Origin: Bryobacterales bacterium
GTDB taxonomy: Bacteria > Acidobacteriota > Terriglobia > Bryobacterales > UBA6623
Direction of reading: 5' to 3'
NCBI GenBank assembly: GCA_965205085.1
Contig: OZ242039.1
Span: 357,911 to 421,910 of the forward strand
Length of the DNA: 64,000 nucleotides
The stretch's first letter is position 1. Every line of letters begins with the position of its first letter. The position numbers and the translations under genes were made by a program. Positions 14,033 to 54,713 of the stretch are shown here, piece after piece. The notes under the pieces were generated by a model that searched no databases, was not told the DNA's origin, and saw only the letters and a program-made list of their open reading frames with translations.

Positions 14033-15368
14033 CGCCGGTTGCACAAGGAAGCGCAACAGCGGGCGGAGGGGCCTAAGGTGCTGATTAGCCTATCCTAGAG
14101 GAGAAATCGCCATGCCTCAGCAGTTCCGCCACCTGCAATACGACGGGCGCTGCCAGATCCAGGCCTTGCACCAGCAGGGATTCTCGGTCACCGCCATCGC
14201 CGCTCAACTCCAGCGTCACAAGTCCACCGTCTGTCGCGAACTCCGGCGCAACGCCGGCCCCTCCGGCTATCACCATGACCAGGCCCAGCAACTCGCTCGA
14301 GACCGCCGCCACCGGGCCGTCACCGGCCCGCGCAAGCTCCAGCCAGCGATCTGGAACCTCATCTCTGACGGCCTCCAGAGCCACTGGAGCCCCGAGCAAG
14401 TGGCCGGCTACCTGAAGCGGGTCGGAGCGGTGTCGGTCAGCTTCTCGTGGCTCTACCAGCGGATTCGCCAGGACCGCGCCCAAGGCGGCTCACTCTACAC
14501 CTACCTGCGGCAGCGCGGCAAGCCGCGCCGCTGCAAGGCCACCCGGGGCAGCGCCGGCCGCGGCTGCATCCCGGGCCGCAGGGACATCAGCGAGCGCCCC
14601 GCAATTGTCGACACGAAGCAGCGCTGCGGGGACTGGGAGGCCGACACGATCATCGGCAAGGCCCATAAAGGAGCCGCTGTCACGCTCGTGGAACGGAAGT
14701 CGAAGTACCTGCTTGCTCAGACAGTTAGCCGGAAGACTGCCGCCCTGGTGGGTGACGCGATGCAGAACCTGCTGCGGCCCTTCGCGGCCTTGGTCCTGAC
14801 CGTGACCTGCGACAACGGGAAGGAGTTTGCCGGCCACCTCCAGACCGCCGAGGCGCTCGAGACCGACATCTTCTTTGCCCGGCCCTACCGCTCCTGCGAG
14901 CGGGGCCTCAATGAACACACCAACGGCCTCCTGCGCCAGTTCGTGCCCAAGACCGAGAACCTGCGCACACTCGACCCGCAACGGCTGCAGGAAGCCGTCA
15001 ATCGGCTCAACCACCGCCCCCGCAAGGTGCTTGGCTACCGCACTCCGTACGAGGTCTTCCGCGACGACTGTCTCGCGGCCGGCATCGACCCGCCACCCGC
15101 ACTCCCGGACCCCGTTCCTCTCTGATCGGGGCCGCAACGCGGCCCCTCCCCGACGCACTTCCCCCTCTCGAGCTGGCGGGCCCAGCCCGCCAGCGCCCCT
15201 GTGGTCCGGTCGCCTCTTCGGGCCAAATCCCGCTGCCACCCTCGCGTAACGGCCACCCCCGGAGCGTCACCTTGACAGATCAACGCGCTGGTCTTACTCT
15301 GGCAGTAGTTCAGCCACCTACTCCAAAGGCCTTATTCCCCGCTGTTGCGGTTCAATGTGCAATGGGCG
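14033..15368 (+). mobile_element. intact IS30-family insertion sequence (about 1.34 kb) with terminal inverted repeats and 3-bp TSD
   Basis: The left repeat cgccggttgcacaaggaagcgcaacagcggg (14033-) pairs with the reverse complement of the right repeat cgcccattgcacattgaaccgcaacagcgggg (ending at 15368). TTC is present on both flanks (14030-14032 and 15369-15371). The element contains a complete transposase ORF. Confidence 0.9.
14112..15125 (+). CDS. IS30-family transposase
   Basis: 337 aa. N-terminal HTH region (QGFSVTAIAAQLQRHKSTVCRELRRN) and a DDE core (GDWEADTI ... TCDNGKEF ... ERGLNEHTNGLLRQFVPK), typical of IS30. Confidence 0.95.
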   Translation: MPQQFRHLQYDGRCQIQALHQQGFSVTAIAAQLQRHKSTVCRELRRNAGPSGYHHDQAQQLARDRRHRAVTGPRKLQPAIWNLISDGLQSHWSPEQVAGYLKRVGAVSVSFSWLYQRIRQDRAQGGSLYTYLRQRGKPRRCKATRGSAGRGCIPGRRDISERPAIVDTKQRCGDWEADTIIGKAHKGAAVTLVERKSKYLLAQTVSRKTAALVGDAMQNLLRPFAALVLTVTCDNGKEFAGHLQTAEALETDIFFARPYRSCERGLNEHTNGLLRQFVPKTENLRTLDPQRLQEAVNRLNHRPRKVLGYRTPYEVFRDDCLAAGIDPPPALPDPVPL

Positions 15369-21062: not shown

Positions 21063-21575
21063 TCAGTACACGGGCGTACCGTAGGGGACAGGCGTCTCCA
21101 CCCGCCGAATATCACTGACGCGTGCGATCTTCCAATCCCCGTCGACCTTCCGCAGGTAGACGTCCTGGACTTCATTCCGGTCTGCATAGACGTATTCAAC
21201 CCGGATCTCCGCCTCCGCCCCGGACTCGATCGGCGCGTTCATTGCGATTCCCTTGATATCGCGGTTCCGTTCACGCAGGAACTCCGAGAAACGTTGCTGT
21301 CCCATCTCTTCCAGGCTTTGGCGCAGAGTCCTTTCCATCTGGCCCGCATAGCACTCCAGGTAGTCGTCGACCATGCCGTCTCTCGCTGCATCCAGCATGC
21401 GGTAGACGACGTCTCGCGGTTCGGCCCGCTTCGGCGTGCCGACCCCGAAAAATCCGGATCCCTGTCGGGAGTTGCGTCGGAGGGTTTCGAACCCGCCCTG
21501 GTTCCAGACGATGAATCCGAGGACACCCGCGATCAGGGCGATCGTGATGGCCTGGGCGCGGGTGTCCTTGCTCAT
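21063..21575 (-). CDS. single-pass membrane protein, last gene of the SPFH/ATPase operon
   Basis: 170 aa. One N-terminal TM helix (AITIALIAGVLGFIVW) followed by a soluble domain ending YLRKVDGDWKIARV. Its ATG overlaps the upstream stop (ATGA, 21572-21575). Confidence 0.75.
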   Translation of the reverse strand: MSKDTRAQAITIALIAGVLGFIVWNQGGFETLRRNSRQGSGFFGVGTPKRAEPRDVVYRMLDAARDGMVDDYLECYAGQMERTLRQSLEEMGQQRFSEFLRERNRDIKGIAMNAPIESGAEAEIRVEYVYADRNEVQDVYLRKVDGDWKIARVSDIRRVETPVPYGTPVY

Positions 21576-22576
21576 GGCAGCGAGGTGCGAGCCGTCGGAC
21601 TGCGACGGATGATGGTCAGGTCGAGGTTTCCGTTCTCGTCGACAATGGTCTTGCGCAACCGGGGCAGGATCTCTTCCATGGTCTCGAGGTACAGGCGGCT
21701 GCGGGTGACCTCCGGACTCCGCCGATACTCCGCGGCGAGCCTCTCGAATCGGGCTGCATCGCCCTGTGCCTGCTGGATCTTGCTTTCCCGGTAACCTCGC
21801 GAGGCCGACAGCAGTTGCTGGGCTTCCCCCCTGGCCCGGGGCAGGATGTCGTTTCGGTAGCCCTCCGCCTCGTTGACGATCCGTGCCGCGTCCGCCCTGG
21901 CCGAGGCCACGTCGCGGAAGGCGTCCGCTGCCTCCGCCGGCGGACTCACCGAGCGGATGTTGACAGTGGACAGGACGACTCCCAGGTCGAAGCGGTCGAC
22001 CAATGTCTGGGCGACAAGCCGGACCTCTTTCTGGATCGCGATTTGCTCGGTCGTCAGGACTTCATCGACCGCACGCGAGGACACCTGCCGCTCGAGCGCC
22101 GCTTCCACCGCATTCGCGACGGCCCGGTCGACGTCACTGGCCCGAAACAGGTAGCGTGCCGGTCTCGTGACGCTGTACTGGACGACAGCCCGTACGTTGA
22201 TGATGTTCTGGTCCCCGGTCAGGAACTGGGACAGGACAGGGTCCGCCGGAATCGCGTTCGCCTCGTCGGCGACCTCGCCCCCGATGAACGCACGTTTCAG
22301 TTCCTGCACCTTCAGCTTTCGGACGGTCCCGACCGGCCAGGGGAAGTGCCAGCCGACGCCGGGTGGAACCTGGTCGTTGGCCACTGCGCCGAAGGTGGTC
22401 AGTACGGCCTGTTCCTCGGTGGGCACTACGTAGAGGCCGCTCACCACCCAAATCGTCAGAGCGATGAGAACGATGTGCCGGACTCGCAGCGCTCGAAGCC
22501 GCCCTGCGATGCGGGCCGGGACTGTGCTGCCGGCTGTTGGCGATAGCGGGGAATGCTGGTGCATGGCAGCGGTCAC
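21572..22576 (-). CDS. hflK: HflK-like SPFH/band-7 membrane protein
   Basis: 334 aa. One TM helix (IVLIALTIWVVSGLYVV), then an SPFH domain and a coiled-coil tail (NEAEGYRNDILPRARGEAQQLL...QGDAARFERL), typical of HflK. The GTG start overlaps the upstream TGA (GTGA). An internal ATG at 22564 is an alternative start. Confidence 0.85.
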   Translation of the reverse strand: MTAAMHQHSPLSPTAGSTVPARIAGRLRALRVRHIVLIALTIWVVSGLYVVPTEEQAVLTTFGAVANDQVPPGVGWHFPWPVGTVRKLKVQELKRAFIGGEVADEANAIPADPVLSQFLTGDQNIINVRAVVQYSVTRPARYLFRASDVDRAVANAVEAALERQVSSRAVDEVLTTEQIAIQKEVRLVAQTLVDRFDLGVVLSTVNIRSVSPPAEAADAFRDVASARADAARIVNEAEGYRNDILPRARGEAQQLLSASRGYRESKIQQAQGDAARFERLAAEYRRSPEVTRSRLYLETMEEILPRLRKTIVDENGNLDLTIIRRSPTARTSLP

Positions 22577-23553
22577 TGTCCCCGGGTCATCAGCCGCAGG
22601 AGTTCGGAGTCCGCGCTGAGGATGACCGTCGTGTCCTCGTCCAGTGCCTTTCTGTAGGCCTCCAGCGTGCGGGTCAGCTTGTAGAACGATTGGTTGCGAG
22701 AATACGCAGCGCCGTAGATCCGTGCCGCCTCGGCATCCCCCTCGCCCTTGGTCGTCTCGGCTTCCTTGTACGCCTTCGCCAGAATCTCCTCCCTCTGGCG
22801 GTCCGCTTCAGCCCGAATCCGGAGCGCCTGCTCCTCGCCCTCGGCTCTGTACTGGCGGGCGATGCGCTCTCGCTCGGCCCGCATCCGAGCGTACACACTC
22901 TGCTTGTTCTGCTCGGGCAGATTCAGGCGCTTGAGCCGTACGTCCACCACACGAATGCCGTATTCCTGCAGGGCTTCCGTCCCGCTGTCTTGTGCAAGCC
23001 GGTCGAGGGCATGGTCAGTCCGAACCCGTTCCGGTGACGTCGATACGATCTCCTCGAGGTCCAGCTTGGCGATCGTCGCGGCCAGCCCGGACCAGACCAG
23101 GTCGTGCAGGCGCATCTCTGCTGCCTGTTCGTTTCCCAGGCGCTGCACGAACGTCTTCGGGTCAGCGATCTGCCACAGCGCGTAGCTGTCGATGCTGAGG
23201 TTCTTCTTGTCCTTCGTAAGAAACTCCGACCGTGGAGGGTTGTACACCCGCAGTCGACGGTCGTAGGTCCGGACCTGATGGATGAGAGGGATCTTGACGT
23301 TCAGGCCGGCCTCGGTGATCGTGCGCACCGGGGCACCAAACTGCGTTACCAGCGCGAACTCGGTTTCCCGGACGGTGAAGAGCCCGGACCATACCAGAAT
23401 CAGACCTGCCGCGACGAGTAGCCGAATGCGGTTTCGATTCCAGAACGCCTGCCATTCGAACGGATCTCGCGGATCTCGGCGGGGGCGGTTATGCTCGTGA
23501 TCGTGGCTGTGCTCGTGGGAATGATGGTCACGGGAGTGGACGTGGTCATGCAT
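22573..23553 (-). CDS. hflC: HflC-like SPFH/band-7 membrane protein with His-rich N-terminus
   Basis: 326 aa. The N-terminus is MHDHVHSRDHHSHEHSHDHEHN, followed by a TM helix (IRLLVAAGLILVWSGLF) and then the HflC pattern (FTVRETEFALVTQFG...KIPLIHQV...FLTKDKKNL..DSYALWQIADP...MRAERERIA..YRAEGEE). It starts 3 nt after the stop of the upstream fusion gene. Confidence 0.9.
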   Translation of the reverse strand: MHDHVHSRDHHSHEHSHDHEHNRPRRDPRDPFEWQAFWNRNRIRLLVAAGLILVWSGLFTVRETEFALVTQFGAPVRTITEAGLNVKIPLIHQVRTYDRRLRVYNPPRSEFLTKDKKNLSIDSYALWQIADPKTFVQRLGNEQAAEMRLHDLVWSGLAATIAKLDLEEIVSTSPERVRTDHALDRLAQDSGTEALQEYGIRVVDVRLKRLNLPEQNKQSVYARMRAERERIARQYRAEGEEQALRIRAEADRQREEILAKAYKEAETTKGEGDAEAARIYGAAYSRNQSFYKLTRTLEAYRKALDEDTTVILSADSELLRLMTRGQ

Positions 23554-23556
23554 GGG

Positions 23557-26500
23557 CTATTCTCTGGTCTCCGGTATTTCAAAGGGTGGTGGCGGCTGCT
23601 GCATGCGGGCACCGGATGGCGCTACCAGGACGCCGTCGTCCATGGTCCACAGCGTTCGCTTACCGCCGTGGGAGTCGATGACGACCTTCTGGCGTCCCGG
23701 AAGGATCTCCTCCATCGCCTCCAGATACAGGCGCGTGACAGTCGATTCCGGCGCAGTGCGGTAGGCGCCTTCCAGCTGGTTGAAGCGAGAGGCGTCGCCG
23801 CCCGCGCGGTCGGACCGACTGGCCCTGTAGGCCTTGGCCTCTTGAACGAGTGCTTCGGCCTGGCCGCGGGCCAGGGCTACCTGCTCGTTTGCGTAGCCCT
23901 CCGCCTCGTTGATCATCCGGTTCTTTTCCTCCAGGGCTCCGGCGACCTCCCGGAAGGCGTCCACGACCTCAACCGATGGATGCATGTCCTGAATGTTGAC
24001 CTGAAGCACGTGTACGCCGGCTTCGTATTCTCCGAGCATTTCGTTCATGCGTTCGGCGGTAAGCCTCTCGGCCTCGCGTCGCCCGGTCGTAAGCAGGGCG
24101 TCCAGATGCATCGTGTTGACGACCGAGCGCAGTGCCGCCTCTGACGCCGCGCGTATTGTGGTCTCCGCGTCCAGCTGTCGAAAGAGGTAATCCTCAGGCC
24201 GCCCGATGTCGTAGTGAACGACAGCGGTTAGCTCGATCATGTTCTGGTCGCCCGTCAGCATCAGCGTCTCGTCCTCGCGCAGTTGAATTCGACCGTCCCG
24301 GTGCTGGAGATTCCATTCGTAGGCGGGGGGATCGCTGAACGCCGTTGTCTCAGCCGTGCGGAAACCGATTTCGATCACCCGGATCTGCTGGGCCTGGATC
24401 CGCGTCAGGCGATCGACCGGCCACGGAAACTTGAGTTGCAGGCCAGGCTCCCGATACGGCAGCACTTTGCGGCCGAACCGCTCGATCACGCCAATTTCCT
24501 GAGTGCCGATCATGAATCCCGATGTGGCCAACCACGAGGCCAGCAGGGCCGCTGCACCGGGTCCCGCCAGCCGCTGGCGGTTCTCGACGAGCCACGCGAA
24601 ACCGGCCGCGGGATCGATTCGGGCGAGTCCATCCAGCAGTCCCTCCCAAGTGCGGCCCAGCCCCAGGAGTTCCCAACCGCGTCGCCATCGGGAGACTTGT
24701 CCCGCCGGGCGCTCGACGCGCAGCAGGCGCACCGAGTTGAGCATCACGAATATCGAAGAGATTTGGTGTACGCCCGCCGCGAGCGCCGGCCCCATCCAGC
24801 CGATGCCGGCGACGTACACTGCGACCACGTTGACGACGCCCGCGAACAGAATGATGTTTTGCCAGACCGTCGTGACAGCCCGTCGCGAGACACCGAAGAG
24901 CTTGGGCAGTCTCCCGATCTGGGTGTTGAGGTCAACGACATCGGCTGCCTCGGCGGCAATGTCGGCACCCGAGCCGGAAATGGCGATGCCCACGTCCGCG
25001 GCTGCCAGGGCGGGGGCGTCGTTGACTCCGTCGCCGATCATCGCAACTTTCCGGCCCTGGATCTGCAACTGCTTGATGTGGTCGAGTTTCTGCTCGGGAA
25101 GGAGTTCGGCCACCACGTGGCTGATGCCCACGACCCTGGCCATCGCATCCGCTGACTTCCGTCGGTCGCCCGTCAGCAGGATGATGTTGGAAAGGCCGAG
25201 TTCCTCGATCTCGTGAATCGCGTCATGGGCGCCGGGTTTCGGGGTGTCCCTCAGCAGGATGGCTCCGGCGAAGCGGTTGCCGTCCGCGATAAGCACAGGG
25301 GTCGCGCCTGCCCTGTCGGCCGCATCGAGATAATCCTGGAGGTTCTCGATGCCGGCCTCCGCGAGGAAACCCTCGTTGCCGGCTCTCAGGGGACGCCCGT
25401 TGCAGATGCACTCCGCCCCGCGTCCCGGCACGATTCTGGCATCACTGGCCTGTCCGCGCGGGAGATTCCTCTCCTCGGCACTGCGGACGATGACCTTTGC
25501 CAATGGATGGTCCGAGCCAGCCTCGGCTGTGGCTCCGAGTGTGAGGACCTGCTCTTCGCTGTGGCCCTCCGCTGCGATGATCTCGACGATTTCGAATTGC
25601 CCGGTCGTCAGGGTTCCCGTCTTGTCGAAGACGACGGTGTCGATTTCAGCGGCCTTCTGGACCACTTGACCACCCCGGGCCAGGAGGCCGCGACGGGCCA
25701 GCCCGCCGATGGCGGCGACCATCGCTGCTGGAGTGGCGAGGATCAGTGCGCAGGGGCACCCGACGATCAGGACGGCGACGGCGCGGCGCACGCGCTCCTC
25801 GGTCTCGGTATCGGCGGACAGGAAGTAGACCGCGCCGGCGGCCAGAAGGATCGCGGGCAGGAAGTACCGTGCATATCGGTCGGCGACGCGCACGACGGGA
25901 GCGGTGCGATGATCGCGTGCCTCCTCGACGAGGTGGATCAGGCGGGCCAAAGTCGAGTCGTCGGCGGCATGGGTGACCCGTACGTGCAGGAGCCCGTGTC
26001 CGTTGACGGTTCCGGAGAAGACCTCGTCTCCGACGGTCTTGTCGCGCGGAACCGACTCGCCCGTGATGGGGCTCTCGTCCACCGAGGACGCCCCGCGCTC
26101 CACCATGCCGTCTGCCGAGATCCTCTCGCCGGCCCGGACGGCGATCAGGTCGCCGGCCAACAGGTCCTCCACATGGACCTCGACCTCCTCACCGTCTCGG
26201 ACCACCCGGGCATGGTGCGGCAGTTGATCCACGAAACGGTGAATCGCCCGTTCCGTGCGTCCGGCGGCCCATGCCTCAAGGCCTTCCCCGAGAAGCATGA
26301 TGAACATGGCCTCTGCAGCCGCCAGGTACTCCCCGATGGCCAGCGCAGCGGCCGCGGCGATGACGATGGCTAGATCGGCGGAGATCCTGCGGTCAAGGAG
26401 CTCAGCGATCGCCCGATAGAAGGTCTTGTAGCCCGCCAGCAGCGCCAGGAAGATCGCCGTGTCGAGACCGGCGAGAGTGTCAAAAATTCCAATCAGGTTG

Positions 26501-26694
26501 AGCAGCAGCAGGACACCCACGACGGCTGTGAATCCCACGTACTTGATCTGCTCCCGGCGATCCCGATTGATGGCGTGATCCTCGGAGACAACATGCACAG
26601 GTAGACAAAGATAGCAGAGCGCACCTCCTCCGGGTCCGTCGGGGCGCGGAGTCCCGTGATGTCCGCTCGGAACAGTCGGACGGGAGCAGCACAC
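23557..26694 (-). CDS. P1B-type (heavy-metal) ATPase fused to a C-terminal HflK-like SPFH domain
   Basis: Single 1045-codon ORF. The ATPase part spans residues about 60-690 (ITGESVP, VGCPCALILATP, FDKTGTLT, MIGDGVNDAPAL). There is no HMA domain, but the N-terminus carries CC, HH and CYLC. An extra hydrophobic helix follows (LAGPGAAALLASWLATSGFMI). The SPFH part spans residues about 745-1000 (IGVIERFGRKV, PGLQLKFPWPVD, NEAEGYANEQVALARGQAEAL). The exact start codon is uncertain. Confidence 0.88.
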   Translation of the reverse strand: MCCSRPTVPSGHHGTPRPDGPGGGALCYLCLPVHVVSEDHAINRDRREQIKYVGFTAVVGVLLLLNLIGIFDTLAGLDTAIFLALLAGYKTFYRAIAELLDRRISADLAIVIAAAAALAIGEYLAAAEAMFIMLLGEGLEAWAAGRTERAIHRFVDQLPHHARVVRDGEEVEVHVEDLLAGDLIAVRAGERISADGMVERGASSVDESPITGESVPRDKTVGDEVFSGTVNGHGLLHVRVTHAADDSTLARLIHLVEEARDHRTAPVVRVADRYARYFLPAILLAAGAVYFLSADTETEERVRRAVAVLIVGCPCALILATPAAMVAAIGGLARRGLLARGGQVVQKAAEIDTVVFDKTGTLTTGQFEIVEIIAAEGHSEEQVLTLGATAEAGSDHPLAKVIVRSAEERNLPRGQASDARIVPGRGAECICNGRPLRAGNEGFLAEAGIENLQDYLDAADRAGATPVLIADGNRFAGAILLRDTPKPGAHDAIHEIEELGLSNIILLTGDRRKSADAMARVVGISHVVAELLPEQKLDHIKQLQIQGRKVAMIGDGVNDAPALAAADVGIAISGSGADIAAEAADVVDLNTQIGRLPKLFGVSRRAVTTVWQNIILFAGVVNVVAVYVAGIGWMGPALAAGVHQISSIFVMLNSVRLLRVERPAGQVSRWRRGWELLGLGRTWEGLLDGLARIDPAAGFAWLVENRQRLAGPGAAALLASWLATSGFMIGTQEIGVIERFGRKVLPYREPGLQLKFPWPVDRLTRIQAQQIRVIEIGFRTAETTAFSDPPAYEWNLQHRDGRIQLREDETLMLTGDQNMIELTAVVHYDIGRPEDYLFRQLDAETTIRAASEAALRSVVNTMHLDALLTTGRREAERLTAERMNEMLGEYEAGVHVLQVNIQDMHPSVEVVDAFREVAGALEEKNRMINEAEGYANEQVALARGQAEALVQEAKAYRASRSDRAGGDASRFNQLEGAYRTAPESTVTRLYLEAMEEILPGRQKVVIDSHGGKRTLWTMDDGVLVAPSGARMQQPPPPFEIPETRE

Positions 26695-27700
26695 GCCGCA
26701 GTGCGGGACTGGCCGATCGCGCCTGGGGAATCATGCACCGGGTGCTTCGGCACGAAGGTGGCTTTCCGGACAGGTAGGCACGGACAGTGCGGCTCCATCG
26801 CGGGTCGCGATGAACCGTACGGATTCGCCGCCGGCAAGACTGGTGGTATCGCAACGTCCCCGGCCGGAATGCTCACAGCGGCACTCCGCAATCGTATCCG
26901 GCCCGCGCGACCAGGTGGGGTGCCCGGGAGCCGGATGAGAACATCCTCTCCTGCCGGGCCGCAGCACGGCTCGCCTTGGATTCCATCCTGCTCTCTTGTG
27001 CCTCCTGCAAACGGGCCAGGCCATGCGCACGCAGATCCCGCCCCGGAAACATCGAGGAGAGCGAGATCTCTATCCGAGGACACTGACCTGCACGACCGCT
27101 GCCACCGGCAGCAGTTGCGGGCTGACCGTACTGAGTTGCGCCCGCTCCAGTTCCTTCCCGCCAATCCCGCGCGTTGCAGCCGCACCAACCGGGCCGTCGC
27201 CAACAGCCCCCATACAGGCGCTTCCAGGGCCGGGCGCCCCGACCTGATCCGGGTCCGCCTTCACTCAACTCCCGGCGCACTTCAGGGCAGTCTCGATGGC
27301 CGCTCTCGCTCTCCATCCGCGGAACCTGGCTTGAAAGCCACGATGACTCGTCGCCGACCGTGTCTGGGCCGTTGCACGGTGGTGCAGCGTGTAGACATCG
27401 AACAAGCCCGTGGCACATCTTGGCGTTCCTCCGCACCAGCTCTCAACCCTTTCTGCCGAGGGGTCCGGGCCGGACATTCTGTGGCTGAGGCCGGGGCAGC
27501 CCGTATGGGCCGATGCGGCAACTCCCTCCCACAGCATCCCGCCAGAAGCACCGGGATCCGTTCGAGGCGTCCTGCAGGCACCCACTTGGCCGGAGCTGGG
27601 CTGAGCCAACCAGCGCGGCAGCGGACAAGGTCTCCGGACCGCATCGGATGTGCCCCAATCGGGGCGGAGCCACGATGTGTACAATCGTCAGTTTCGGACA

Positions 27701-29347: not shown

Positions 29348-32300
29348 TCAGCCACCCTGCTGCAGTCTGGCTTGGTCCAGCACCCATCGTCGAATGAGCT
29401 GGTAGCCTGGATCGTCCGGGGCGTAGCGGACGCCGCCCTGGTGACCGTCCTCCTCGCCGGACTGGATGTTGAGGGGCTTGCGCAGGAACTTGCTTCTCTC
29501 GACGTCGTGCAGGTCGACGCGCTGCTGCATCCGGCGATAGTTGCCGAGAAGACCCTCCGGAGGAATGTATCCGGCTGCATCGGGCGGCTCGATGTACAGC
29601 GTCGGCACGCGTCCCGGAACTCCGTGGCATGAAATGCAAGCCCGGTTGTCCTTCGGATCGATCCGCGTCATTTCCGTGAACACGTAGTCGCGGAAACGAA
29701 TGATGTCGGCGATCCACTCCTCCGACACCCCCAGCGGGCGAATCTCGCCCGGCCGCTTTCGGCTGCCGTCCTGCTCCTGACGGATCAGATCGCGGAGTTT
29801 GGCACCGTAAATCCTGTCGTCGCTGTTCAGGATGTTCTCGATCCGGCTCCGGTAGACCGGGCTGGGCTCCTGATCGACCCAGGTCGTCAGGGTCTTGAGC
29901 ACCTCCGGGTGACGTCGCAGGGCCGTCTTGTTGGCGAGCGTGATGGCTTCCTTGCGCACATCCTCAGGAGCGTCAGCGGAGAACCACGACGTGAACATGC
30001 GGATCAGCCGGTCCTTCGCCTCGATGATCGGGTCGATCACCTCGATGCCCAACTCGTCCTCGGTGAACAGCGAGCCCGCGTTTTCGGCCGGCTCCAGCTT
30101 GATGTAGTCGAGGCCGAATATGAAGTTCTTCTCGGCATCTGGATGGGCCCCCGCCATGCGGAACGCGAGTCGATTCACGCCTGCCGTGAAGCCGTGGACT
30201 CCGAGCGAGACCGGCCCGGGAGCGGTCAGGTCCGGCCGGTAGAAGTCCATCCGGTCACCGAAGGGCTCTCCGTTGAGAAACGGCTGGACCGTGCCCATTT
30301 CCCGATCGAAGACGAAGGCCGCGACAATCTCGTACAGCCCTGCTGCAGGAGCTTCGACGGCAAACGTCAGCCGGTTCCCGGGAAGTCCTTCGCGCCACCA
30401 CAGTATGGTGTTGCGGCTTGCCAGACCGTCCGGGACGAGCTGCTTGGTCGTACGTCCGCCGGTCAGTTCCAGAACCTCCAGATCCTCGGCTTCAGTTGCG
30501 CCCTCGATCGCGTCTTGCAGAGTGGGTCCCCCTTCCTGGTAACGCAGCATCCATTCGGTCGAGGGTAGCCAGAAACGGGCGTTCTCCTCGACATGGTCGA
30601 ACACGGCCCGCCGATGGAGCGTCGGGTTGTCCCCCAGCATCCGCCCGAGCAGGGCCGACCGCTGCTCCAGGACAGCCCGGCTCGAGTCGGAGCGTGATGC
30701 CGGGCGTCCGAGCAGGTAGGGTACCGCGGCGGTCGGAGACGGCTCTTCGGAGGGGACGAGCATCTGGAAGAACTCGCGCTCGGCCTCTGGCTCACCGTCC
30801 GGAAAATGCCAGCGGACCCTCGAAAGGAACCGAACCAGCGCCTCCGCGTCGTCGCGCCGTCCTGCTTGTAGGAAGGCGTCGAGTTTGTCGAGCAGTGGGC
30901 GGATCGTCTCCCTCTCGGCCCGCAGGTGGAACGCTCTCGGATTGGACAGGGCCTTCGCCGCGGCAGCGACCTGTTCCAGGTCGTCGCTCTGCAGCAGTGC
31001 AAACAAATGGTCCTGCAGTGGCCGGTAGTTCACGTTGGCCGCACCCTGCAGCGCTAGCGATCGCCACGGGACGGGTTTCGAGTCGTCCCGGCTGCGGTAG
31101 ATCGTCAGGAGAATCTCGCCGATGACCTCAGTCGAGCCGGGAGTTGAGTAACCGAGTTGTCCCGGGCCGCCGTCGTTGCCGCGTTCTTCGAAATGGGTCG
31201 CCGCCACCGCTGTCAGCCGCTCCTCAAGCCGTTCCCGTTGCTTGGGCGGACGCCGGCGGGTGGCCGAGAGCATCCGATACAGATCGGCCAACTCGCGGTA
31301 CTGCTGGGGGCGATTGTCGGTGCCGGTCTGGTTGGCGATCTGGCCGTTGGTTATCAGCAGGGCTGCCGTCGAGTAGCGAAGCGCAGCCTCGGCGTGGGCA
31401 TTCGGCTCGTCCGCCAGCAGGGCGTCCACCCACCCCCGGTTGATTCGTTGGCGCAAGGCCGGGTTCCAGACCCACCAGCGCCAAGCGGCCTTGAAGGCGA
31501 AGGCCCGAACCCCGGGAAACGGATCCCGCATCGCCGCCCGGAACAGGTCGGCCAGTCCTTTGTGGTCAACTCTCGAGCCGGGGCCAGCCAGATCGGCCCG
31601 GGTCACCAGTGCCTGCAGGACCGACTGCCGTGTCCGCTCGTCGCCAGCCCGGTAGGCGGCCAACAGGGCCGGCCAGCCCTGATCGTCCAGCAGCAGCTGC
31701 CGCATCGACCAGAACGCCGCCTCCCGGCAGGCCTTGACCGGATCAGAGAGGCCAGAAATGAGGGCCGGTATTCCTTGCGTCGCGAGCGACCCGCCGATCC
31801 CGAGGTATCCGAACGAACGAACCTCGGGCATGTCGTCCTCGGTCGCCTCGATCATCAGGTCCGCGAAGTCCTCCCGGCCCGTGGACTGCAGGGCGCGCAC
31901 CCGCGAGAGCTTTTCGATGGGGGTTTCTCCGGAGCGAGGCTCGAAGTCCTCGCGCCGGAACGCTTCGGCATCTCCCGGGTACAGGCGGCTGAGGGCTCGA
32001 ATCACGTACGCGTTCGTGACGAAGCCGGTCTGTGCGGAACGGTTCCAGAGGCCGTACTCGAACTGGTTCTTCAGTAGCCAATTCACGGCGCGCTGCACAA
32101 CCGGGCTGGTCGCCCCGTAGCCGGCTGCCCTCAGCCCGATCAGGGAGACAGCGGTGGGGGCCGGGTCGCCGGATTCGTCGATGCGGTTCCAGGTGTCCGT
32201 GCTTTCGTCGTGGACACCCAGATCGAACCCCCACGAACCGTCTTCCTGCTGCAGCGAGAGGAGCCGTCGCAGGTCCCGGTCGGCTTGGCGCCGGAACGCC

Positions 32301-34276
32301 GGGATGAGATCCCTGTACCGCCGACCGAGTTCGGAGGCGGGAGCGAGTGTCTCCAGTTCGTGTTGCGGGAGCAGCGCATGGAAGAACTCGAGCCGATGGC
32401 CGAGGTCGTCGACAACCTTGAGTCGGGTATCGCCCGTCGCGACGATCTTCTCCGCCTTGTCGACGATTCCGGCCAGGTAACGCTGATCGCCAGTGTCGCG
32501 CCAGGCCCGCTCGAGGATCTCGGCAGCAAATTTGAAGACCACATTCGGGCCGAAATTCGATCCCTTTCCGGCAGCATTGATGCCCTGCGGGTCGGCGGTC
32601 TGCAATACGTAGTTGGCCGTTCTCCTCTGCTGGTACGCATGCAGCCGTTTAGCGGGGTATGTACGCTCGTGCAGCACGATGTTCCGTCCGGCAACTCGGC
32701 TTCCGGCTGGTGCGTCGCCCAGGTCATTGGGTGCGAGCGACGTGTTGGCTGCGGCATCGACGAGCTCGTTCGTCGGCCGCAGGCTCTCGTACATCGTGTT
32801 GATGAGACGGCGGTAGTTCTGGATGGTGCCGTCCGGCCGGTAGCCGTAGCGCATGGCATCCGCCACGCCCCAGACTCCGCTCTGCGTGTGACAACTCATA
32901 CAGTTCTCGCCGAAGAGGCTCGAACCGTCCCGGACCCGCCTATGCACCGCAATGTTGCGGGGACGGTGGATGAGCCAGGCGTCGATCTCCGCGATGTGGT
33001 AGTAGATTGACTGCTGGATGGCTCGTTCCGGGCTGGCGTACGGTGCAGCGTCCACGATGCGCAGCTCGAGTTCATAGCCCGGCTGGTTTGCCTCGACGCG
33101 GACAAAATACGTTCCTCCCGGGTGCACCCGACGCGTCACGAAGGATCGGAAGTTGTCGTCTTGCTGGTGAATTCTCTCATTGGCGTCGCGACCGTCGTAG
33201 TAGCTGTACACCGGCTGGGGCCCGGGAATAACCTCCGTGTCGGGATGGATGTAGGGAATGGTGTTGCTGTTGCCGAAGTCCTCCCGTTTCGCTGCCTCGC
33301 GCGGTTCCAGTTCCCTCGCTGTGGGCACGCCCGGCTGGTAGATCCGGATCCGGGCACTGACGACCGGCTCTGGAATCTGCAGGTTCGCCGTCAGAAGCTT
33401 GACACGGTCGCCCCGGTATTCAATCCGATACCAGTCGTCCGGGGAACACCCCGAGGCGGGATTGTCGAAGTACTCAAGCTCGTCCGCGCCCCCGATCACC
33501 CGGAGTACCTGATCTACGCTACCGGCTGCGAAGGGAACGAGCACGGCGTTCTCCGGAGCGTTGTTCGGTTCCGTCTCGAGGACGATGTCGGCGGCTTGCG
33601 TCTCGTTGACGGGCCGGACGTCCACCCGGAGCTCGGCCGATTCGATCGGGGGAGTCTCCCGGGGCGGTGCGGTGGCGAGCGACGCCAGTCCCGTATCCCT
33701 GTGGTACCGCGAGATCGAACGTTCCCCGTCGATCACCGTATTGAGCTGCAGGTCATAGCGACCGGCGATGGGGGCCCGGTAGAGGATGTGGATGTCTGGG
33801 TCGAGTGCGTGAAGGATCTTGCTCCAGCCGTTGTGGACACCCACCACCAGGTCGCCCCGTTGATCCTCGCTCCGGCTATCGGAAACGGGAGGGCCATTCC
33901 ACATGGCTTCGATCCGGGCATTGTCGGGCAGCTGACCGGGATTGGCGATCCCGACGGAGATCCTCACGATTGCTCCGGCTGCAAGGTCCCACCCTCTGGA
34001 CCAGGCTCCTGAAAAGTCGATGGATTCTGCAGCGGATGTGACAGATGGAACACAACTCAGGACGGCAGCCGCGAGCGCTACCGCAGGATGCCGCAACCGG
34101 AATGGAGCCGGCCGGCTGGCGGCGGCGGATGGATGGATCGCGGGTGGGTGTGACATGACCGGAAGGGGCAGGGCGGTGAGTCGCGGGACGCAAGCGCGAG
34201 GTATTCCGGGGGGTCTCCCATGGAACCCGTTGTCGGACAACAGTTTCCACCCACAGGCGCGATGCCGTAGCGACAT
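29348..34276 (-). CDS. very large secreted multidomain protein (two CXXCH motifs, prenyltransferase/terpenoid-cyclase-like and HEAT-like repeats, PSCyt-like C-terminus)
   Basis: 1642-codon ORF. The likely true start is MSHPPAIHP (34156), followed by a signal-like AVALAAAVLSCVPSVTSA. It has CMSCH at 32888-32902 and CISCH at 29624-29638. Repeats such as LLSLQQEDGSWGF and AVNWLLKNQFEYGLWN look prenyltransferase-like. HEAT-like segments are present (PEVRSFGYLGIGG..IPALISGLSDPV..REAAFWSM). The C-terminal block NRACISCHGVPGRVPTLYI recalls planctomycete-type cytochrome domains. Confidence 0.85.
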   Translation of the reverse strand: MSLRHRACGWKLLSDNGFHGRPPGIPRACVPRLTALPLPVMSHPPAIHPSAAASRPAPFRLRHPAVALAAAVLSCVPSVTSAAESIDFSGAWSRGWDLAAGAIVRISVGIANPGQLPDNARIEAMWNGPPVSDSRSEDQRGDLVVGVHNGWSKILHALDPDIHILYRAPIAGRYDLQLNTVIDGERSISRYHRDTGLASLATAPPRETPPIESAELRVDVRPVNETQAADIVLETEPNNAPENAVLVPFAAGSVDQVLRVIGGADELEYFDNPASGCSPDDWYRIEYRGDRVKLLTANLQIPEPVVSARIRIYQPGVPTARELEPREAAKREDFGNSNTIPYIHPDTEVIPGPQPVYSYYDGRDANERIHQQDDNFRSFVTRRVHPGGTYFVRVEANQPGYELELRIVDAAPYASPERAIQQSIYYHIAEIDAWLIHRPRNIAVHRRVRDGSSLFGENCMSCHTQSGVWGVADAMRYGYRPDGTIQNYRRLINTMYESLRPTNELVDAAANTSLAPNDLGDAPAGSRVAGRNIVLHERTYPAKRLHAYQQRRTANYVLQTADPQGINAAGKGSNFGPNVVFKFAAEILERAWRDTGDQRYLAGIVDKAEKIVATGDTRLKVVDDLGHRLEFFHALLPQHELETLAPASELGRRYRDLIPAFRRQADRDLRRLLSLQQEDGSWGFDLGVHDESTDTWNRIDESGDPAPTAVSLIGLRAAGYGATSPVVQRAVNWLLKNQFEYGLWNRSAQTGFVTNAYVIRALSRLYPGDAEAFRREDFEPRSGETPIEKLSRVRALQSTGREDFADLMIEATEDDMPEVRSFGYLGIGGSLATQGIPALISGLSDPVKACREAAFWSMRQLLLDDQGWPALLAAYRAGDERTRQSVLQALVTRADLAGPGSRVDHKGLADLFRAAMRDPFPGVRAFAFKAAWRWWVWNPALRQRINRGWVDALLADEPNAHAEAALRYSTAALLITNGQIANQTGTDNRPQQYRELADLYRMLSATRRRPPKQRERLEERLTAVAATHFEERGNDGGPGQLGYSTPGSTEVIGEILLTIYRSRDDSKPVPWRSLALQGAANVNYRPLQDHLFALLQSDDLEQVAAAAKALSNPRAFHLRAERETIRPLLDKLDAFLQAGRRDDAEALVRFLSRVRWHFPDGEPEAEREFFQMLVPSEEPSPTAAVPYLLGRPASRSDSSRAVLEQRSALLGRMLGDNPTLHRRAVFDHVEENARFWLPSTEWMLRYQEGGPTLQDAIEGATEAEDLEVLELTGGRTTKQLVPDGLASRNTILWWREGLPGNRLTFAVEAPAAGLYEIVAAFVFDREMGTVQPFLNGEPFGDRMDFYRPDLTAPGPVSLGVHGFTAGVNRLAFRMAGAHPDAEKNFIFGLDYIKLEPAENAGSLFTEDELGIEVIDPIIEAKDRLIRMFTSWFSADAPEDVRKEAITLANKTALRRHPEVLKTLTTWVDQEPSPVYRSRIENILNSDDRIYGAKLRDLIRQEQDGSRKRPGEIRPLGVSEEWIADIIRFRDYVFTEMTRIDPKDNRACISCHGVPGRVPTLYIEPPDAAGYIPPEGLLGNYRRMQQRVDLHDVERSKFLRKPLNIQSGEEDGHQGGVRYAPDDPGYQLIRRWVLDQARLQQGG

Positions 34277-35484: not shown

Positions 35485-35949
35485 AGGGCTTGTGGGCCGG
35501 TGCGGTCCATCGCTGGACCCGTCCCCCGGATCCGCGATCGAGGCTGATCAGTTTGGCGCAGAAGCGGGCGTTGATGCAACGCGGTGAAGTTGCCTGCCCC
35601 GGATCGTTCCACCTGGACGTTAGGCTCGGTTCGGGACCGGAGGCTGCGGCTTCCACGCGAAGACAACCAGGATCAATCTGCCTCGCAGACACCAAAGGTG
35701 GTATTCGGTCGGGAGGAAGTGGGGCGTTCGACCAGACGGACGCTTCCGACTGGGCCGTGCATGGGTACAGGGAAATGTCACCGGATGGGTAACTGCCCAG
35801 GTACTTTGGGTCCCGGACAAGGATCAGCAGGCGGAGGGGCACTTAACTTACTTTTGGGCGGAGAAGGCGTAGGATGAAGTCCTTTCCGGAGGTCGAGGTC
35901 GTAGCGAGCCAGCCGCAGCTTCAGGACCCGCCGGAGCCGAGGCCGGGTC

Positions 35950-37230
35950 ATGCAGGGGCAGCGCACCAAGGGCAAGTCCCGTCTGCTGCACTGGCAGGCG
36001 GAGAGGACTCGTCTGCAGGCCGAGCGAAAGCAGTTGACGCAGCAGTTGGAGGCCGCGCAGGAGGAAGGGCAGCAGTCGCGGCGGAGCTTGGGCCTCAACA
36101 GCAGCAACAGCTGGAAATCCCCGTCGAGCGATGGGCCAGCGGACCCGCAGCCAGCGGCGGCGCCCCGGCCGGCGCAGCGGAGGCCAGAGAGGGTACCGGT
36201 GCAGTACCCGTCTTCCCTCGTGAGCATCGGCGCCCTCGTTGCAGGGCGCAGCGGAGGCCAGAGAGGGTACCGGTGCAGTACGGGCCGCGCCTGGCGGCCA
36301 CGGCGATCTACTTGCAGAACGCCCACTTCGTGCCCGAGGAGCGGCTGACCCAGATCCTGCGGGACCTGTGCGGTGTGAGCTTGTGCCCCGGCACCCTGAA
36401 CAACCTGCGCCGCCGGGCGGCCGAGGCTTGGGAGCCCTTCGTCGAGCGGATCCGGGAGCACCCCCTAACTTGCCCCGGGGTGAAGCACCTTGACGAGACT
36501 GGTTTCCGGGGCGGGGGACGGGGACAGTGGCTGCATGGACTGAGCAATCAGCTGCTGACCTACTACCGCATCAGTGAGAAGCGGGGCGGGGTGTTGGCGG
36601 GGCTGCGAGGGATCCTGGTGCACGATCACTGGGCTCCCTACTTCCAGGTGCCGGATGGGCTGCACGCGCTGTGCAACGCCGATCATTTGCGCGAGTTAGA
36701 GGCCCTGGTGAAGATCGATGGGGAAGCCTGGGCCGGGCGGATGCAGCGTTTTCTGCGGGGGGCCAGACGGGTGGCGGAGCGGGCCCGCAAACGGGCGAGG
36801 TGGTGCCTCCCCAGATGTTGAAGCGGATGGAAAGCCGCTACGACGAGTTGGTGCAGGAGACACTGGACTACCCAGCGGGCTGCCGCCGTTGCCGACCGTC
36901 CGGCGGGGCCGCCAGAAACGTCGGCCCGGCCATAACTTGGCCTTGCGGCTGGAACGGAGACGCGCCTGGGTGTTGCTTTTTCTGTTCAATTTGAGTGTGC
37001 CGTTCACGAACAACCTGGGTGAGCGGGAGTTGCGCAGGATGAAGCTGCTGAGGAAGATCTCGGGAGGATTCCGTTCGCTCCAAGGGGCGCGGGAGTTCGT
37101 CATGCTGCGCAGTGTGCTGTCGACGGCGCGCAAGCAGGGGCTGAAGCCGATCGAGACCCTGCTCGAGGGGCCGGCGGCCCTGCTGGAGCAGGTGGGCCTA
37201 GCTCCGAGCCTCCCGCCCAGCGGGCAATAG
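35950..37230 (+). pseudogene. IS66-family transposase (TnpC-type), multiple frameshifts
   Basis: IS66 blocks are spread over three frames. There is an N-terminal coiled coil (LLHWQAERTRLQAERKQLTQQLEAAQEE). The core reads YGPRLAATAIYLQNAHFVPEERLTQILRDLCGVSLCPGTLNN...HLDETGFR...ILVHDHWAPYF...ALCNADHLRELE. The C-terminus reads PFTNNLGERELRRMKLLRKISGGFRSLQGAREFVMLRSVLSTARKQG. A 74-bp internal duplication and further frame changes near 36780-36900 disrupt it. Confidence 0.85.
36172..36282 (+). repeat. 74-bp tandem duplication inside the IS66 transposase gene
   Basis: The exact 37-nt string ggcgcagcggaggccagagagggtaccggtgcagtac occurs at 36172-36208 and 36246-36282 (period 74, not divisible by 3). 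The sequences following each copy are diverged versions of each other. The two readings are RPERVPVQYPSSLVSIGALV and RPERVPVQYGPRLAATAIYL. Confidence 0.9.
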
Positions 37231-52838: not shown

Positions 52839-54713
52839 TTAGCGGATGAGAGCCAAGGTTAGAGCCGGCACGTATGTGATCAGCAGGACGCCTGCAAAGA
52901 GAATGGCCAGGAAGGGAAGGATCGAGGCGTAGACTCGGGTGAGAGGCACCTCGAACCGGTACGAGGACAGGAAAAGGTTGAGGCCTACCGGTGGTGTCAG
53001 GTATCCGAGTTCGAGATTCGCCAGGAAGATGATGCCGAGATGGACGGGATCAACCCCGTAGGCCACGCCCATCGGAGCGATCAGTGGGACCACCACCAGG
53101 ATTGCGGAGAAAATATCCATCATGCATCCGACGATCAGGAGCACAATGTTCAGGACCAGCAGGAACAGGTACTTGGATTCGATATGGGACTGCACCCATT
53201 CCAGGGCCTGGTCCGGAACCTGTGCGTCGATCAGGTAGTTCGTGAATCCGAGAGCGACCCCGAGAATGAGCAGGACTCCACCCACCAGCGTGGCGCACTC
53301 TGCGAACACCCCCGGCAACTGTTTGCGGACCGACAGATCGCGATACACAAGGCACTCGACGACGAACGAGTAGATCACCGTAACGGCCGCTGCCTCCACG
53401 AGGGTGACGATCCCACCGAAAATCCCGCCCACGACCACCAATGGAAGCAACAGCTCCCACTTGGCTGACATGACGGCGTCCCGTGCTTCTGAAAGGCTGA
53501 AGCGACGCCGCTCGCGCTGCGCCGAGGACCCATGGACCACGCCCCACAACGCAACCAGTCCAACCAGCAGGAGGCCAGGCAGGAAGCCACCCAGAAACAG
53601 CTCGCTGATCGGTGTTCGTGAGTACACACCGTAGAGAATGATGGCGAGACTGGGTGGGAACAGCAGGCCGATCGATCCTGAGGCTGTCACCAGACCGAGT
53701 GAGAACTTGCGGGAGTATTGGGACTTGACCAGCACGGGCAAGAGAAGTCCTCCAAGAGACAGGATGGTCACACCTGAGGCTCCAGTGAAGGAAGTGAAGA
53801 ATGCGAAAGCGAAGGCGGTCGTAATGGCGAGACCGCCCGGCAGCCAGCCGAGGAGGGCGGAGAAGACCCGCACCAGACGTCGGCTGGCCCCCCCCTCGGC
53901 AAGGATGTAGCCTCCCAGTGTGAATAGCGGGATTGCAGGCAACAGGGGCTGACCCGACAGTTGGTAAGTCGCTAGCGGGACCGCCGACACCGGGGTGTAT
54001 TCGAACCAGAACAGCAGGGCTGCCAGTCCGCCGATCACGGCGAAGATCGGCAGTCCCAACAGTGCTCCTCCAAGGAGAGCGATGACGCCGAACTCGAGGA
54101 CCGGGAGGTCGGACAAGCCCTCCCAGAAGCCCAGTGCCACCGGGACTGCGCCGCCAGCGATAGCAATGATTCTTGTGACGACGGAATCTGAGCACTTCAG
54201 GGCCATTCGGATGGCGATGACTGCGAATCCGGGAACCATCGCCGAAACGAAGAGCCAAACCGGCAGGCCGAATGCGACGATATCCCCGGCCTCGCGTTCG
54301 ACCATCGCAAACGTCCAGGCACCGTACGCGAGACAGACGCAAACGGCGACGCCCACGAAGGCCGTAGCTGCTCGCCCCGGAGCTCGCAGCCATTCCGGCA
54401 GGAACGTTGCGGTGGAAAGTGCCAGCAGCCGACCTTGCCGGGCCGCCAGTGCCCCTCCCGCGATCGCGATGAGGAGGGTGAGGTGCTGGACCAGGGGAAT
54501 GGAGCCGGGAATGAGGTTCCCGACCCCTGCCAGCCGAGCCGCTCCCTCTGCTAGTGGTAAGATCGTGGCAAGCGCCAGAAAAACTATCGATGCCGAATCT
54601 TCGGCACTGTGCCAAGGTCGGTCCGTCTTCGTTCGGGGGGCGGGTGCGGTCGGGGATTGCGCGGTCATTATTGGGCGGCCCCTGCCCGGACCCGAGGCAA
54701 GTAGCGTTCGCAC
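52839..54713 (-). CDS. TRAP transporter, fused small (DctQ-like) + large (DctM-like) permease
   Basis: 624 aa and highly hydrophobic throughout. An N-terminal region of about 180 aa with 4 TM segments precedes a DctM-type 12-TM body ([61 protein letters not shown]). The start could be the internal MTAQSPT (54668). Confidence 0.88.

Follow-up and report, generated by a model that had tools for sequence, protein, structure and literature searches.

The analysed window is a stretch of 64,000 nucleotides (nt) from a Bryobacterales bacterium of the Acidobacteriota (GenBank assembly GCA_965205085.1, contig OZ242039.1, positions 357,911 to 421,910 of the forward strand), to which all window coordinates below refer. 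Four consecutive open reading frames (ORFs) were located on its minus strand at 21063-26694. The first encodes a complete P1B-type (heavy-metal) ATPase joined in one polypeptide to a complete HflK, and is followed by genes for an HflC-like SPFH protein, a free HflK-like SPFH protein and a small membrane-anchored NTF2-like protein, referred to as gene 4 (Table 1). The three gene junctions (TAG ccc ATG, GTGA and ATGA) were read in the DNA as listed in the first-pass annotation, a description made from the sequence alone that had also proposed the fusion and an SPFH cage or microdomain organised around the pump. Each half of the fusion belongs to a well-known family; the novelty lies in their fixed combination and in the accompanying set of three SPFH paralogues. 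As judged by sequence comparison, the fusion is real and ancient and is conserved in at least five bacterial phyla including Acidobacteriota.

The minus-strand ORF 23557..26694 begins at the first in-frame GTG (26694), ends with a TAG at 23559-23557 and spans 1045 codons without interruption. Of the 1045-codon gene proposed in the first-pass annotation the uninterrupted frame stood and the start did not, the probable start lying 32 codons further in, at GTG 26598, with 26694 marking an in-frame upstream extension. This start was considered the most likely one because a database protein of 100% identity (P0402) has an annotated length of 1013 amino acids (aa) and homologues align from there, giving a fusion gene at 23557..26598 (minus strand) of 1013 aa plus stop. 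Scanning against Pfam (1045-codon numbering, as for the NCBIfam matches that follow) placed E1-E2_ATPase at residues 158-335, the HAD hydrolase at 351-567 and Band_7 at 728-934, the last falling where a Band_7 domain had been expected (residues of about 745-1000). NCBIfam matched TIGR01525 (heavy-metal P-type ATPase) at 107-657 with 565 bits against a cutoff of 346 and TIGR01933 (HflK) at 728-1011 with 218 bits against a cutoff of 159, so that an ATPase and an HflK-like domain do share one ORF, both of them complete and above cutoff. A model of the fusion was calculated with AlphaFold2 from an alignment of 54 Bryobacterales-type sequences (A4), with a predicted local distance difference test (pLDDT) score of 72; in its 1013-aa numbering the P1B part extends up to residue 626 and is followed by linker helices at 637-672, a ninth transmembrane (TM) helix at 674-691, the SPFH domain at 694-874, a long helix at 876-948 and two C-terminal strands. 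Public automatic names for proteins of this kind are 'FtsH protease activity modulator HflK', 'cation-translocating P-type ATPase family protein' and 'Cu+-exporting ATPase', and neither the first nor the last describes the fusion architecture.

Table 1. Coordinates of the four genes and their features in the 64,000-nt window, with the evidence used to place them.
Feature	Window position	Strand	Evidence
Fusion gene: P1B-type ATPase, linker, HflK	23557..26598	-	Pfam, NCBIfam, P0402, ~68 of 80 loci
P1B ATPase core, residues 107-660 (1045-codon numbering)	24715..26376	-	TIGR01525, scores against solved structures, AlphaFold2 helices
TM4 Cys-Pro-Cys metal-site motif	25750..25758	-	Alignment of fusions
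DKTGT phosphorylation motif	25612..25626	-	Invariant D325-T329 in A4
TM6 H-Q-I-S-S; family consensus H-(Q/E)-x-x-S	24754..24768	-	Read from the DNA, family alignment
Cytoplasmic linker, ~48 aa, three short helices, conserved IDPAAGFAWLxExR	24580..24723	-	AlphaFold2, alignment
Ninth TM helix, HflK's own anchor, then SGF motif	24526..24579	-	AlphaFold2 helix 674-691, E. coli HflK 84-100
HflK body: SPFH domain, ~70-residue coiled-coil helix, C-terminal strands	23560..24519	-	TIGR01933, 7vhp, AlphaFold2
SPFH insertion, ~32-44 aa, with A-Y-E-W-N-x-Q-H	24241..24372	-	Low pLDDT at 743-786, alignments
HflC-like SPFH subunit, 326 aa	22573..23553	-	TIGR01932, 230 bits against cutoff 134; start 3 nt past the fusion stop
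His-rich cytoplasmic N-terminal tail of the HflC-like subunit, MHDHVHSRDHHSHEHSHDHEH	23491..23553	-	Locus comparison
Free HflK-like SPFH subunit, 334 aa	21572..22576	-	TIGR01933, 228 bits against cutoff 159; GTGA overlap
Membrane-anchored NTF2-like protein (gene 4), 170 aa	21063..21575	-	AlphaFold2, Foldseek; ATGA overlap

An exhaustive, profile-free search with the full-length protein against 1.84 billion cluster representatives returned dozens of proteins of 990-1150 aa that aligned end to end in a single stretch at identities down to ~34%, and among the 150 top-ranking representatives (clusters at 50% identity) at least 76 had both halves in the same order. All three Pfam domains were recovered by a word-indexed search in more than 110 of 120 clusters (90% identity) of ~1000 aa. 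A species-genome scan (one genome per species), for which two narrow peptide patterns were taken from the TM6-linker-SPFH part of a four-sequence alignment, identified 366 species genomes carrying a relative of this part. Locus-level counts given here refer to the best 80 loci of that scan, all of which cover TM6, the linker and the SPFH domain; ~68 of them, those with enough flanking sequence, contain an intact ORF of ~1000 aa and, behind it in unchanged order, gene 2, gene 3 and in most cases gene 4, and the remaining loci without an intact ORF are contig-truncated or frame-broken. The nearest relatives are Bryobacterales metagenome-assembled genomes (MAGs), with up to 90% identity, and farther fusions were found in Planctomycetota (Gemmataceae, Isosphaeraceae and Zavarzinella), Elusimicrobiota, Abditibacteriales and Ca. 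Fervidibacterota. The first-pass annotation had held that novelty would be lost if the fusion and operon were already common and functionally described. The fusion is widespread in genomes and not rare, but no functional description was found: searching of the literature, including a 2009 survey of prokaryotic SPFH proteins, revealed no P-type ATPase-SPFH fusion or operon, most subscription-journal papers lying outside the coverage of the search.

Frame breaks within the fusion gene were observed on three distinct contigs (L001, the same as L017, at ~7801; L002 at ~7794-7873; and L033 at ~8031-8669), two of which bear long-read-assembly-like names, and such breaks would be in keeping with an assembly or annotation artefact in which a missed stop or frameshift merges two genes. 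However, the breaks are single or double, lie at positions that differ among the three contigs and are confined to them, whereas an intact ORF with the conserved linker is present in ~68 of the 80 loci and in more than 110 protein clusters from many assemblers and phyla; an artefact is refuted by these comparative data and retains practically no probability. The junction DNA of the window itself (24300-24800) was read through without encountering a stop, a homopolymer run or an ambiguous base, so that the break against which the first-pass annotation had cautioned is absent from this junction as well. In the frame-broken MAG copies, gene callers produce shorter 'Hydrolase+Band_7' proteins together with spurious opposite-strand ORFs over the N-terminal half, and short proteins of this kind were ascribed to contig truncation, frame breaks and candidate pre-selection. 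A truncated architecture, suggested by a query with the C-terminal 446 aa, whose matches all measured 500-780 aa and gave no E1-E2_ATPase hit, was rejected after tblastn located the N-terminal half collinear upstream.

The pump core comprises eight TM helices and the A, P and N domains, all eight long helices of the AlphaFold2 model lying before residue 627, and it displays the features by which P1B pumps are recognised, namely the catalytic motifs, the HP motif, a CPx motif in TM4 and an eight-helix domain (as predicted by AlphaFold2). No N-terminal HMA domain was found in the fusion, whose first membrane helix begins at ~residue 14. The window protein carries ITGES, FDKTGTLT, SDHPLA, LLTGD and GDGVNDAPAL, and TGE, DKTGT, HP, TGD and GDGxND are invariant in A4; the ATPase motifs quoted in the first-pass annotation are thus all present, with their key residues invariant. 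Because all catalytic motifs are invariant in the family, the pump is expected, on its sequence, to be active and catalytically competent. With regard to the metal site, CPC is present in TM4 of 58 of 60 aligned full-length fusions (the exceptions being P0136 with CSC and P0219 with SPR) and is invariant in the 54 sequences of A4. TM5 carries a conserved Asn opposite the Asn in the YN of L. pneumophila CopA, the Tyr position being occupied by Val. In TM6, HQISS can be aligned equally with the H-E-G-S-T of sCoaT and with the M-A-L-S-S of L. pneumophila CopA; in the latter comparison a His occupies the position of the Met that serves as Cu(I) ligand. It had been proposed that TM6 bears a Cu(I)-like signature with His in place of Met and is not of the Zn/Cd D-x-G type, and both points agree with the alignments, since HQISS stands opposite MALSS and H-Q/E-x-x-S is found family-wide.

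Comparison with the described subgroups showed a mixture of characters. The combination of YN in TM5 and MxxSS in TM6 that defines P1B-1 (CopA type) is absent, and the match to TIGR01511 (407 against a cutoff of 397) is marginal; the Lys in TM5 and DxG in TM6 of P1B-2 (ZntA type) are likewise not seen, DxG pumps occurring only among remoter unfused matches. P1B-4 (sCoaT/CzcP type) is defined by SPC in TM4 and HEGxT in TM6, and the fusion has CPC in TM4; of the CPC and TM6 HN that characterise the 'P1B6-like' CtpC, CPC is present and TM6 reads HQ or HE. Assignment to a subgroup by likeness to solved pumps was tried and dropped, as the scores (sCoaT 7qbz 341, CopA 331 and ZntA 302 bits) are too close. 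The P1B-4 pump sCoaT, the best-scoring of these structures, resembles the fusion in the alignment of its TM6, where the His, a polar residue in second place and the Ser/Thr are common to HEGST and HQISS, and in having no classical N-terminal HMA domain, but differs in its TM4 SPC, and the fusion has the Asn but not the Tyr of the Cu(I) 'YN' in TM5. From its sequence the metal site is best described as a hybrid of TM4 CPC, TM5 Asn and TM6 H-Q/E-x-x-S, which does not warrant placement in any one subgroup.

Unfused pumps of 600-720 aa possess the same CPC/HQxSS site, and pumps of the HN, HEGSA, DxG, HEGST and MxxSS types are more distant. A rough neighbour-joining tree, midpoint-rooted and used for leaf clustering only, as it offers no clean clade test, clustered the fused pumps together, in two subgroups (HE-type and HQ-type), with unfused HQ-type pumps nearest to them, and placed one Elusimicrobial fusion among the unfused pumps; HN-type unfused pumps neighbour the fusions in the match list, but are not the closest in this tree. 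Database names of the nearest unfused pumps are generic and were uninformative. In one locus (L091:4652-6908) the start of an unfused CPC/HQVSS pump follows 5 nt behind the gene for a CsoR/RcnR-family repressor with the Cys...His...Cys pattern of a Cu(I)-sensor-type fingerprint, and a role in efflux is supported for the clade because this relative lies directly behind such a repressor. In another (L092:1-6863, a Bathyarchaeota MAG, GCA_018396725.1) an unfused CPC/HQFSS pump directly follows a complete CbiM-CbiN(PDGLE)-CbiQ-CbiO module for Co/Ni uptake, which is itself preceded by a Band_7 and NfeD (stomatin-NfeD) pair; the CbiM and PDGLE genes are absent from the source annotation. The substrate is taken to be a transition metal, with Zn, Co or Ni somewhat favoured over Cu(I).

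The fused HflK part was aligned with E. coli HflK (7vhp) at 144 bits over HflK residues 84-142 and 148-357, a range that includes the TM helix, and its sequence provides the TM anchor, SPFH domain, coiled coil and C-terminal region of an HflK. HflK's cytoplasmic N-tail is replaced by the pump and the ~48-aa linker. The extra hydrophobic helix that the first-pass annotation had placed between the halves is seen in the AlphaFold2 model as the ninth helix, following the eight of the pump. The C-terminus of P1B pumps is cytoplasmic, and HflK has its N-terminus inside and its C-terminus outside; therefore the fused SPFH domain should face the periplasm, and by analogy with the two families we infer for it the non-cytoplasmic side on which it had previously been placed, in agreement with the established P1B and HflK topologies and with the ninth helix. 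Two features set the fused copy apart from its relatives. The first is the insertion in the SPFH domain, in which the Y, E, W, Q and H are invariant in A4 and which is reduced to a W-x-x-x-H core in the farthest lineages; the second is a D-x-H-P motif at the position where the free HflK paralogue and E. coli HflK have (S/T/R)-P-P. Both are found in the fused copy of every phylum sampled, and neither occurs in the free HflK paralogue or in E. coli HflK.

Of the partner proteins, the free HflK-like subunit scored 167 bits against E. coli HflK. The HflC-like subunit starts with MHDHVHSRDHHSHEHSHDHEH, ahead of its membrane helix, and equivalent HflC-like tails with 10-25 His per ~40 aa were found in nearly all loci of at least ~62% identity and in a few distant ones. 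The His-rich segment is located instead on the N-tail of the free HflK in L064 and L074, and in the fusion linker in L003, L064 and L069; all of these positions are cytoplasmic and directly precede an SPFH membrane anchor. Gene 4 was modelled with AlphaFold2 from a 58-sequence alignment (pLDDT 82 overall, above 90 in the folded domain), yielding a TM helix at residues 3-26, a disordered tether and an alpha+beta NTF2-like cone at 53-160, for which the top Foldseek matches were NTF2-like, DUF4783 and SnoaL proteins. Scanning of gene 4 against Pfam and NCBIfam gave sub-threshold family matches only and no NfeD match, its fold being NTF2-like; in addition, the Pfam scan of the four products gave no match to DUF1490 or DUF6110. 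Its C-terminal VPYGTPVY (window 21063-21090), almost invariant among homologues and modelled with low confidence, suggests a conserved docking peptide, and its single near-invariant Cys is C75.

One alternative is a metallation compartment, in which the pump, not chiefly a detoxifier, would feed metal into the periplasmic lumen of an SPFH cage and the NTF2-like protein or the Trp/His loop of the fused copy would pass it on to metalloproteins of the periplasm or the membrane. Such a role would be consistent with the conserved His residues found only in the fused copy (AYEWNxQH and DxHP), in an SPFH domain that is probably periplasmic, with a conserved NTF2-like partner that is predicted to face the periplasm and has an invariant C-terminal peptide, and with the absence of a metal-responsive regulator beside the operon; moreover, some P1B pumps (CopA2/CcoI type) serve cofactor delivery (PMC8475189). 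However, the NTF2-like protein has no evident cluster of metal ligands beyond its one near-invariant Cys (C75), gene 4 is missing in several lineages and its topology is only predicted, and the His tails on the cytoplasmic side would suit the capture of metal for export just as well, so that a metallation compartment is regarded as unlikely.

All loci examined had an HflC-like partner, and most of them also had a free HflK-like one. The fusion, HflC-like, HflK-like and gene-4 homologues were all found in a Bryobacteraceae locus (L003), a Planctomycetota MAG (L004) and Abditibacteriales (L090), so that gene 4 is conserved in three phyla, and it is missing in several lineages. The fusion is accompanied by two Band_7 genes in Isosphaeraceae (L087), and only the HflC-like partner was detected in Fervidibacterota (L089) and Zavarzinella (L088). 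A rearranged order was observed in Elusimicrobiota (L005:3116-9982), where two Band_7 genes, CbiQ and an ABC ATPase precede the fusion without a CbiM. CbiQ/ABC genes adjoining this pump clade thus recur in two unrelated lineages (L005 and L092). One Bryobacterales MAG (CBDCOC01) contains two copies of the operon (L024 and L026), and in L024 ~1.9 kb are inserted between the fusion and the HflC-like gene, this HflC-like copy having no His-rich tail.

Neither an ftsH nor a metal regulator was found in the 64-kb window, and neither is conserved beside the operon in the examined loci; the earlier remark that ftsH is not adjacent therefore extends to the whole window. The resemblance to the HflK/C-FtsH system nonetheless calls for consideration of FtsH-coupled turnover, in which the HflK/C assembly would recruit an FtsH encoded elsewhere, the fusion would place the pump within the chamber of the protease, and the abundance of the pump would be set by regulated proteolysis or shielded from it. 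All three SPFH proteins score above the NCBIfam HflK/HflC equivalog cutoffs, they align to the E. coli HflK of FtsH complexes, and the chambers of E. coli HflK/C are thought to decide which membrane proteins reach FtsH (bioRxiv 10.1101/2024.08.09.604662). Set against this, ftsH is absent from the window and from all loci examined, the conserved insertion and DxHP of the fused copy are foreign to E. coli HflK, the reported contact between HflK Arg191 and FtsH could not be mapped unambiguously onto the alignment, and the His-rich tails point to metal handling and not to proteolysis; FtsH-coupled turnover is therefore considered possible but doubtful.

With regard to the surroundings, a spacer of ~1 kb (26599-27649), without a convincing ORF, separates the operon from a divergent acyl-CoA-synthetase-type gene. 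No riboswitch, promoter, terminator, operator or inverted repeat was found in it, the sole Rfam match being a meaningless snoRNA (E=0.8), and its sequence is not shared by close relatives at the corresponding position. In the close relatives L001 and L002, synteny is kept for the neighbouring Tricorn protease and DUF3500 genes. Transposase genes flank the region at a distance, at 14112-15125 (plus strand, HTH_38 and rve integrase, possibly IS30-like) and at 35874-36821 (plus strand, IS66-family DDE). Elsewhere in the window, 29348-34276 (minus strand) encodes a 1642-aa protein of no clear family with HEAT repeats, prenyltransferase/squalene-cyclase-like repeats and a CxxCH-like 'CISCHG' near its C-terminus, and 52839-54713 (minus strand) encodes the membrane component of a TRAP transporter, with DctQ and DctM fused into one protein of 624 aa.

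The four-gene operon is interpreted as a hard-wired, SPFH-scaffolded metal-efflux platform, with a probability of roughly one half. The fused HflK, the HflC-like subunit and the free HflK-like subunit would together build a ring or open cage of the HflK/C type, with its SPFH domains on the periplasmic face of the inner membrane, and this assembly would hold several pumps tethered within a single membrane microdomain. By taking up HflK positions, the free HflK paralogue would keep the number of pumps per ring below the number of such positions; by a rough size estimate, twelve pump headpieces would be too many for the inside of a ring of HflK/C size. In this lineage the juxtamembrane His-rich tails of the HflC-like subunits would provide, on the cytoplasmic side, a ring of low-affinity metal sites beside the pump entrances and would act in trans as the metal-binding domain that is absent from the pump, and on the periplasmic side the NTF2-like protein, the Trp/His loop of the fused copy and DxHP may act in docking or metal hand-off. 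The parts list of a cage is present, because the TIGR01933 and TIGR01932 matches lie above cutoff, the E. coli HflK alignment includes the TM helix and the AlphaFold2 model contains the coiled coil. The notion of an SPFH cage or microdomain around the pump, put forward in the first-pass annotation, is strengthened by the cross-phylum conservation of the partners, HflC-like in all loci examined and free HflK-like in the majority of them, and by the metal-type His-rich tails carried by scaffold subunits.

One of the closest known systems is E. coli HflK/HflC-FtsH (PDB 7vhp, 7wi3 and 9cz1). Its 24 HflK/C subunits enclose four FtsH hexamers in a closed cage under overproduction, and the native assembly is an open 'nautilus' that holds one or two of them (bioRxiv 10.1101/2024.08.09.604662). 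As in that system, HflK-family proteins (the fused part and gene 3) and an HflC-family protein (gene 2) are encoded by adjacent genes and share a single TM anchor with the N-terminus inside, an SPFH domain, a long coiled coil and C-terminal strands. Unlike in E. coli, where FtsH is enclosed without a covalent link, the client is a covalently joined P1B pump; the SPFH paralogues number three and not two, no ftsH is nearby, and the fused copy has the AYEWNxQH insertion and DxHP, with the long cytoplasmic N-tail of E. coli HflK swapped for pump and linker. Another explanation would be that the SPFH part serves as a generic tag that only oligomerises or localises the pump, for example in a lipid domain, and plays no part specific to metal, with the His tails as incidental low-complexity sequence; SPFH proteins are general membrane organisers, and the His tails are lineage-restricted. 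However, the tails recur at three different cytoplasmic juxtamembrane positions across lineages, the insertion and DxHP of the fused copy persist from phylum to phylum, and dedicated HflC-like and HflK-like partners are kept in place of a borrowed housekeeping pair, so that little probability is given to a generic tag.

Several observations weigh against the platform interpretation. Many loci are without any His-rich tail, and the tails are therefore not essential to the core mechanism; in Fervidibacterota L089 and Zavarzinella L088 the HflC-like partner stands alone. The clues to the substrate conflict, comprising the C-H-C CsoR-type repressor of L091, the CbiMNQO adjacency of L092 and the CtpC-like motifs. 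Co-assembly of the three SPFH proteins is what we infer solely from their homology and from operon conservation, the pumps may lie inside or outside the ring, and FtsH may still have a role. Finally, the AlphaFold2 model of the fusion is of only moderate confidence, as its pLDDT indicates.

The closest functional precedent, by analogy, for a scaffolded metal-efflux platform is the mycobacterial PacL1/CtpC system. CtpC (CPC and TM6 HN), termed 'P1B6-like' by Boudehen et al., exports zinc (PMC9374683) and needs PacL1, a single-pass scaffold with a DLHDHDH motif, for the formation of high-molecular-weight efflux platforms; PacL1 stabilises CtpC in high-molecular-weight foci that are independent of flotillin (PMC9374683, PMC13043812). 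In both systems a pump with CPC and a TM6 His-x motif is encoded together with a single-pass scaffold that carries a cytoplasmic His-rich motif (His/Asp-rich and metal-binding in PacL1), and the idea of pumps clustered or stabilised in membrane platforms is common to both, the analogy being a functional one only. PacL differs in being a DUF1490 protein with Glu/Ala repeats, restricted to Actinobacteria and not an SPFH protein, whose foci exclude flotillin (PMC9374683), whereas the scaffold of the present operon consists of true SPFH proteins, predicted to form a hetero-oligomer and covalently linked to the pump, and TM6 reads HQ or HE instead of HN. Stomatin/NfeD operons likewise encode an SPFH gene with a small membrane-anchored partner, which here, however, is an NTF2-like domain on a TM tether instead of an NfeD OB-fold or protease protein.

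The role of SPFH cages (HflK/C, prohibitins, stomatins and flotillins) for membrane clients, and how these clients are selected, is still debated. In the present fusion the client is fixed to its scaffold in one polypeptide across at least five phyla, so that both the identity of the client and its point of attachment are known, and the fusion is a natural test case for scaffold-client organisation in which the activity of the pump (metal-dependent ATPase and transport) is easy to measure. A bolder form of the interpretation, in which the SPFH paralogues would form a closed or semi-closed periplasmic chamber enclosing a fixed number of tethered pumps, with metal released into this confined space instead of the bulk periplasm and handed to the NTF2-like protein or the Trp/His sites, is distinctly unlikely; if true, the chamber would be a dedicated organelle-like module for metal handling and the first SPFH cage with a genome-fixed client and stoichiometry. 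As a scaffolded platform, the operon would extend the 'effluxosome' idea, that of P1B pumps in scaffolded platforms with His-rich membrane chaperones, beyond Actinobacteria and to a different, structurally well-understood class of scaffold.

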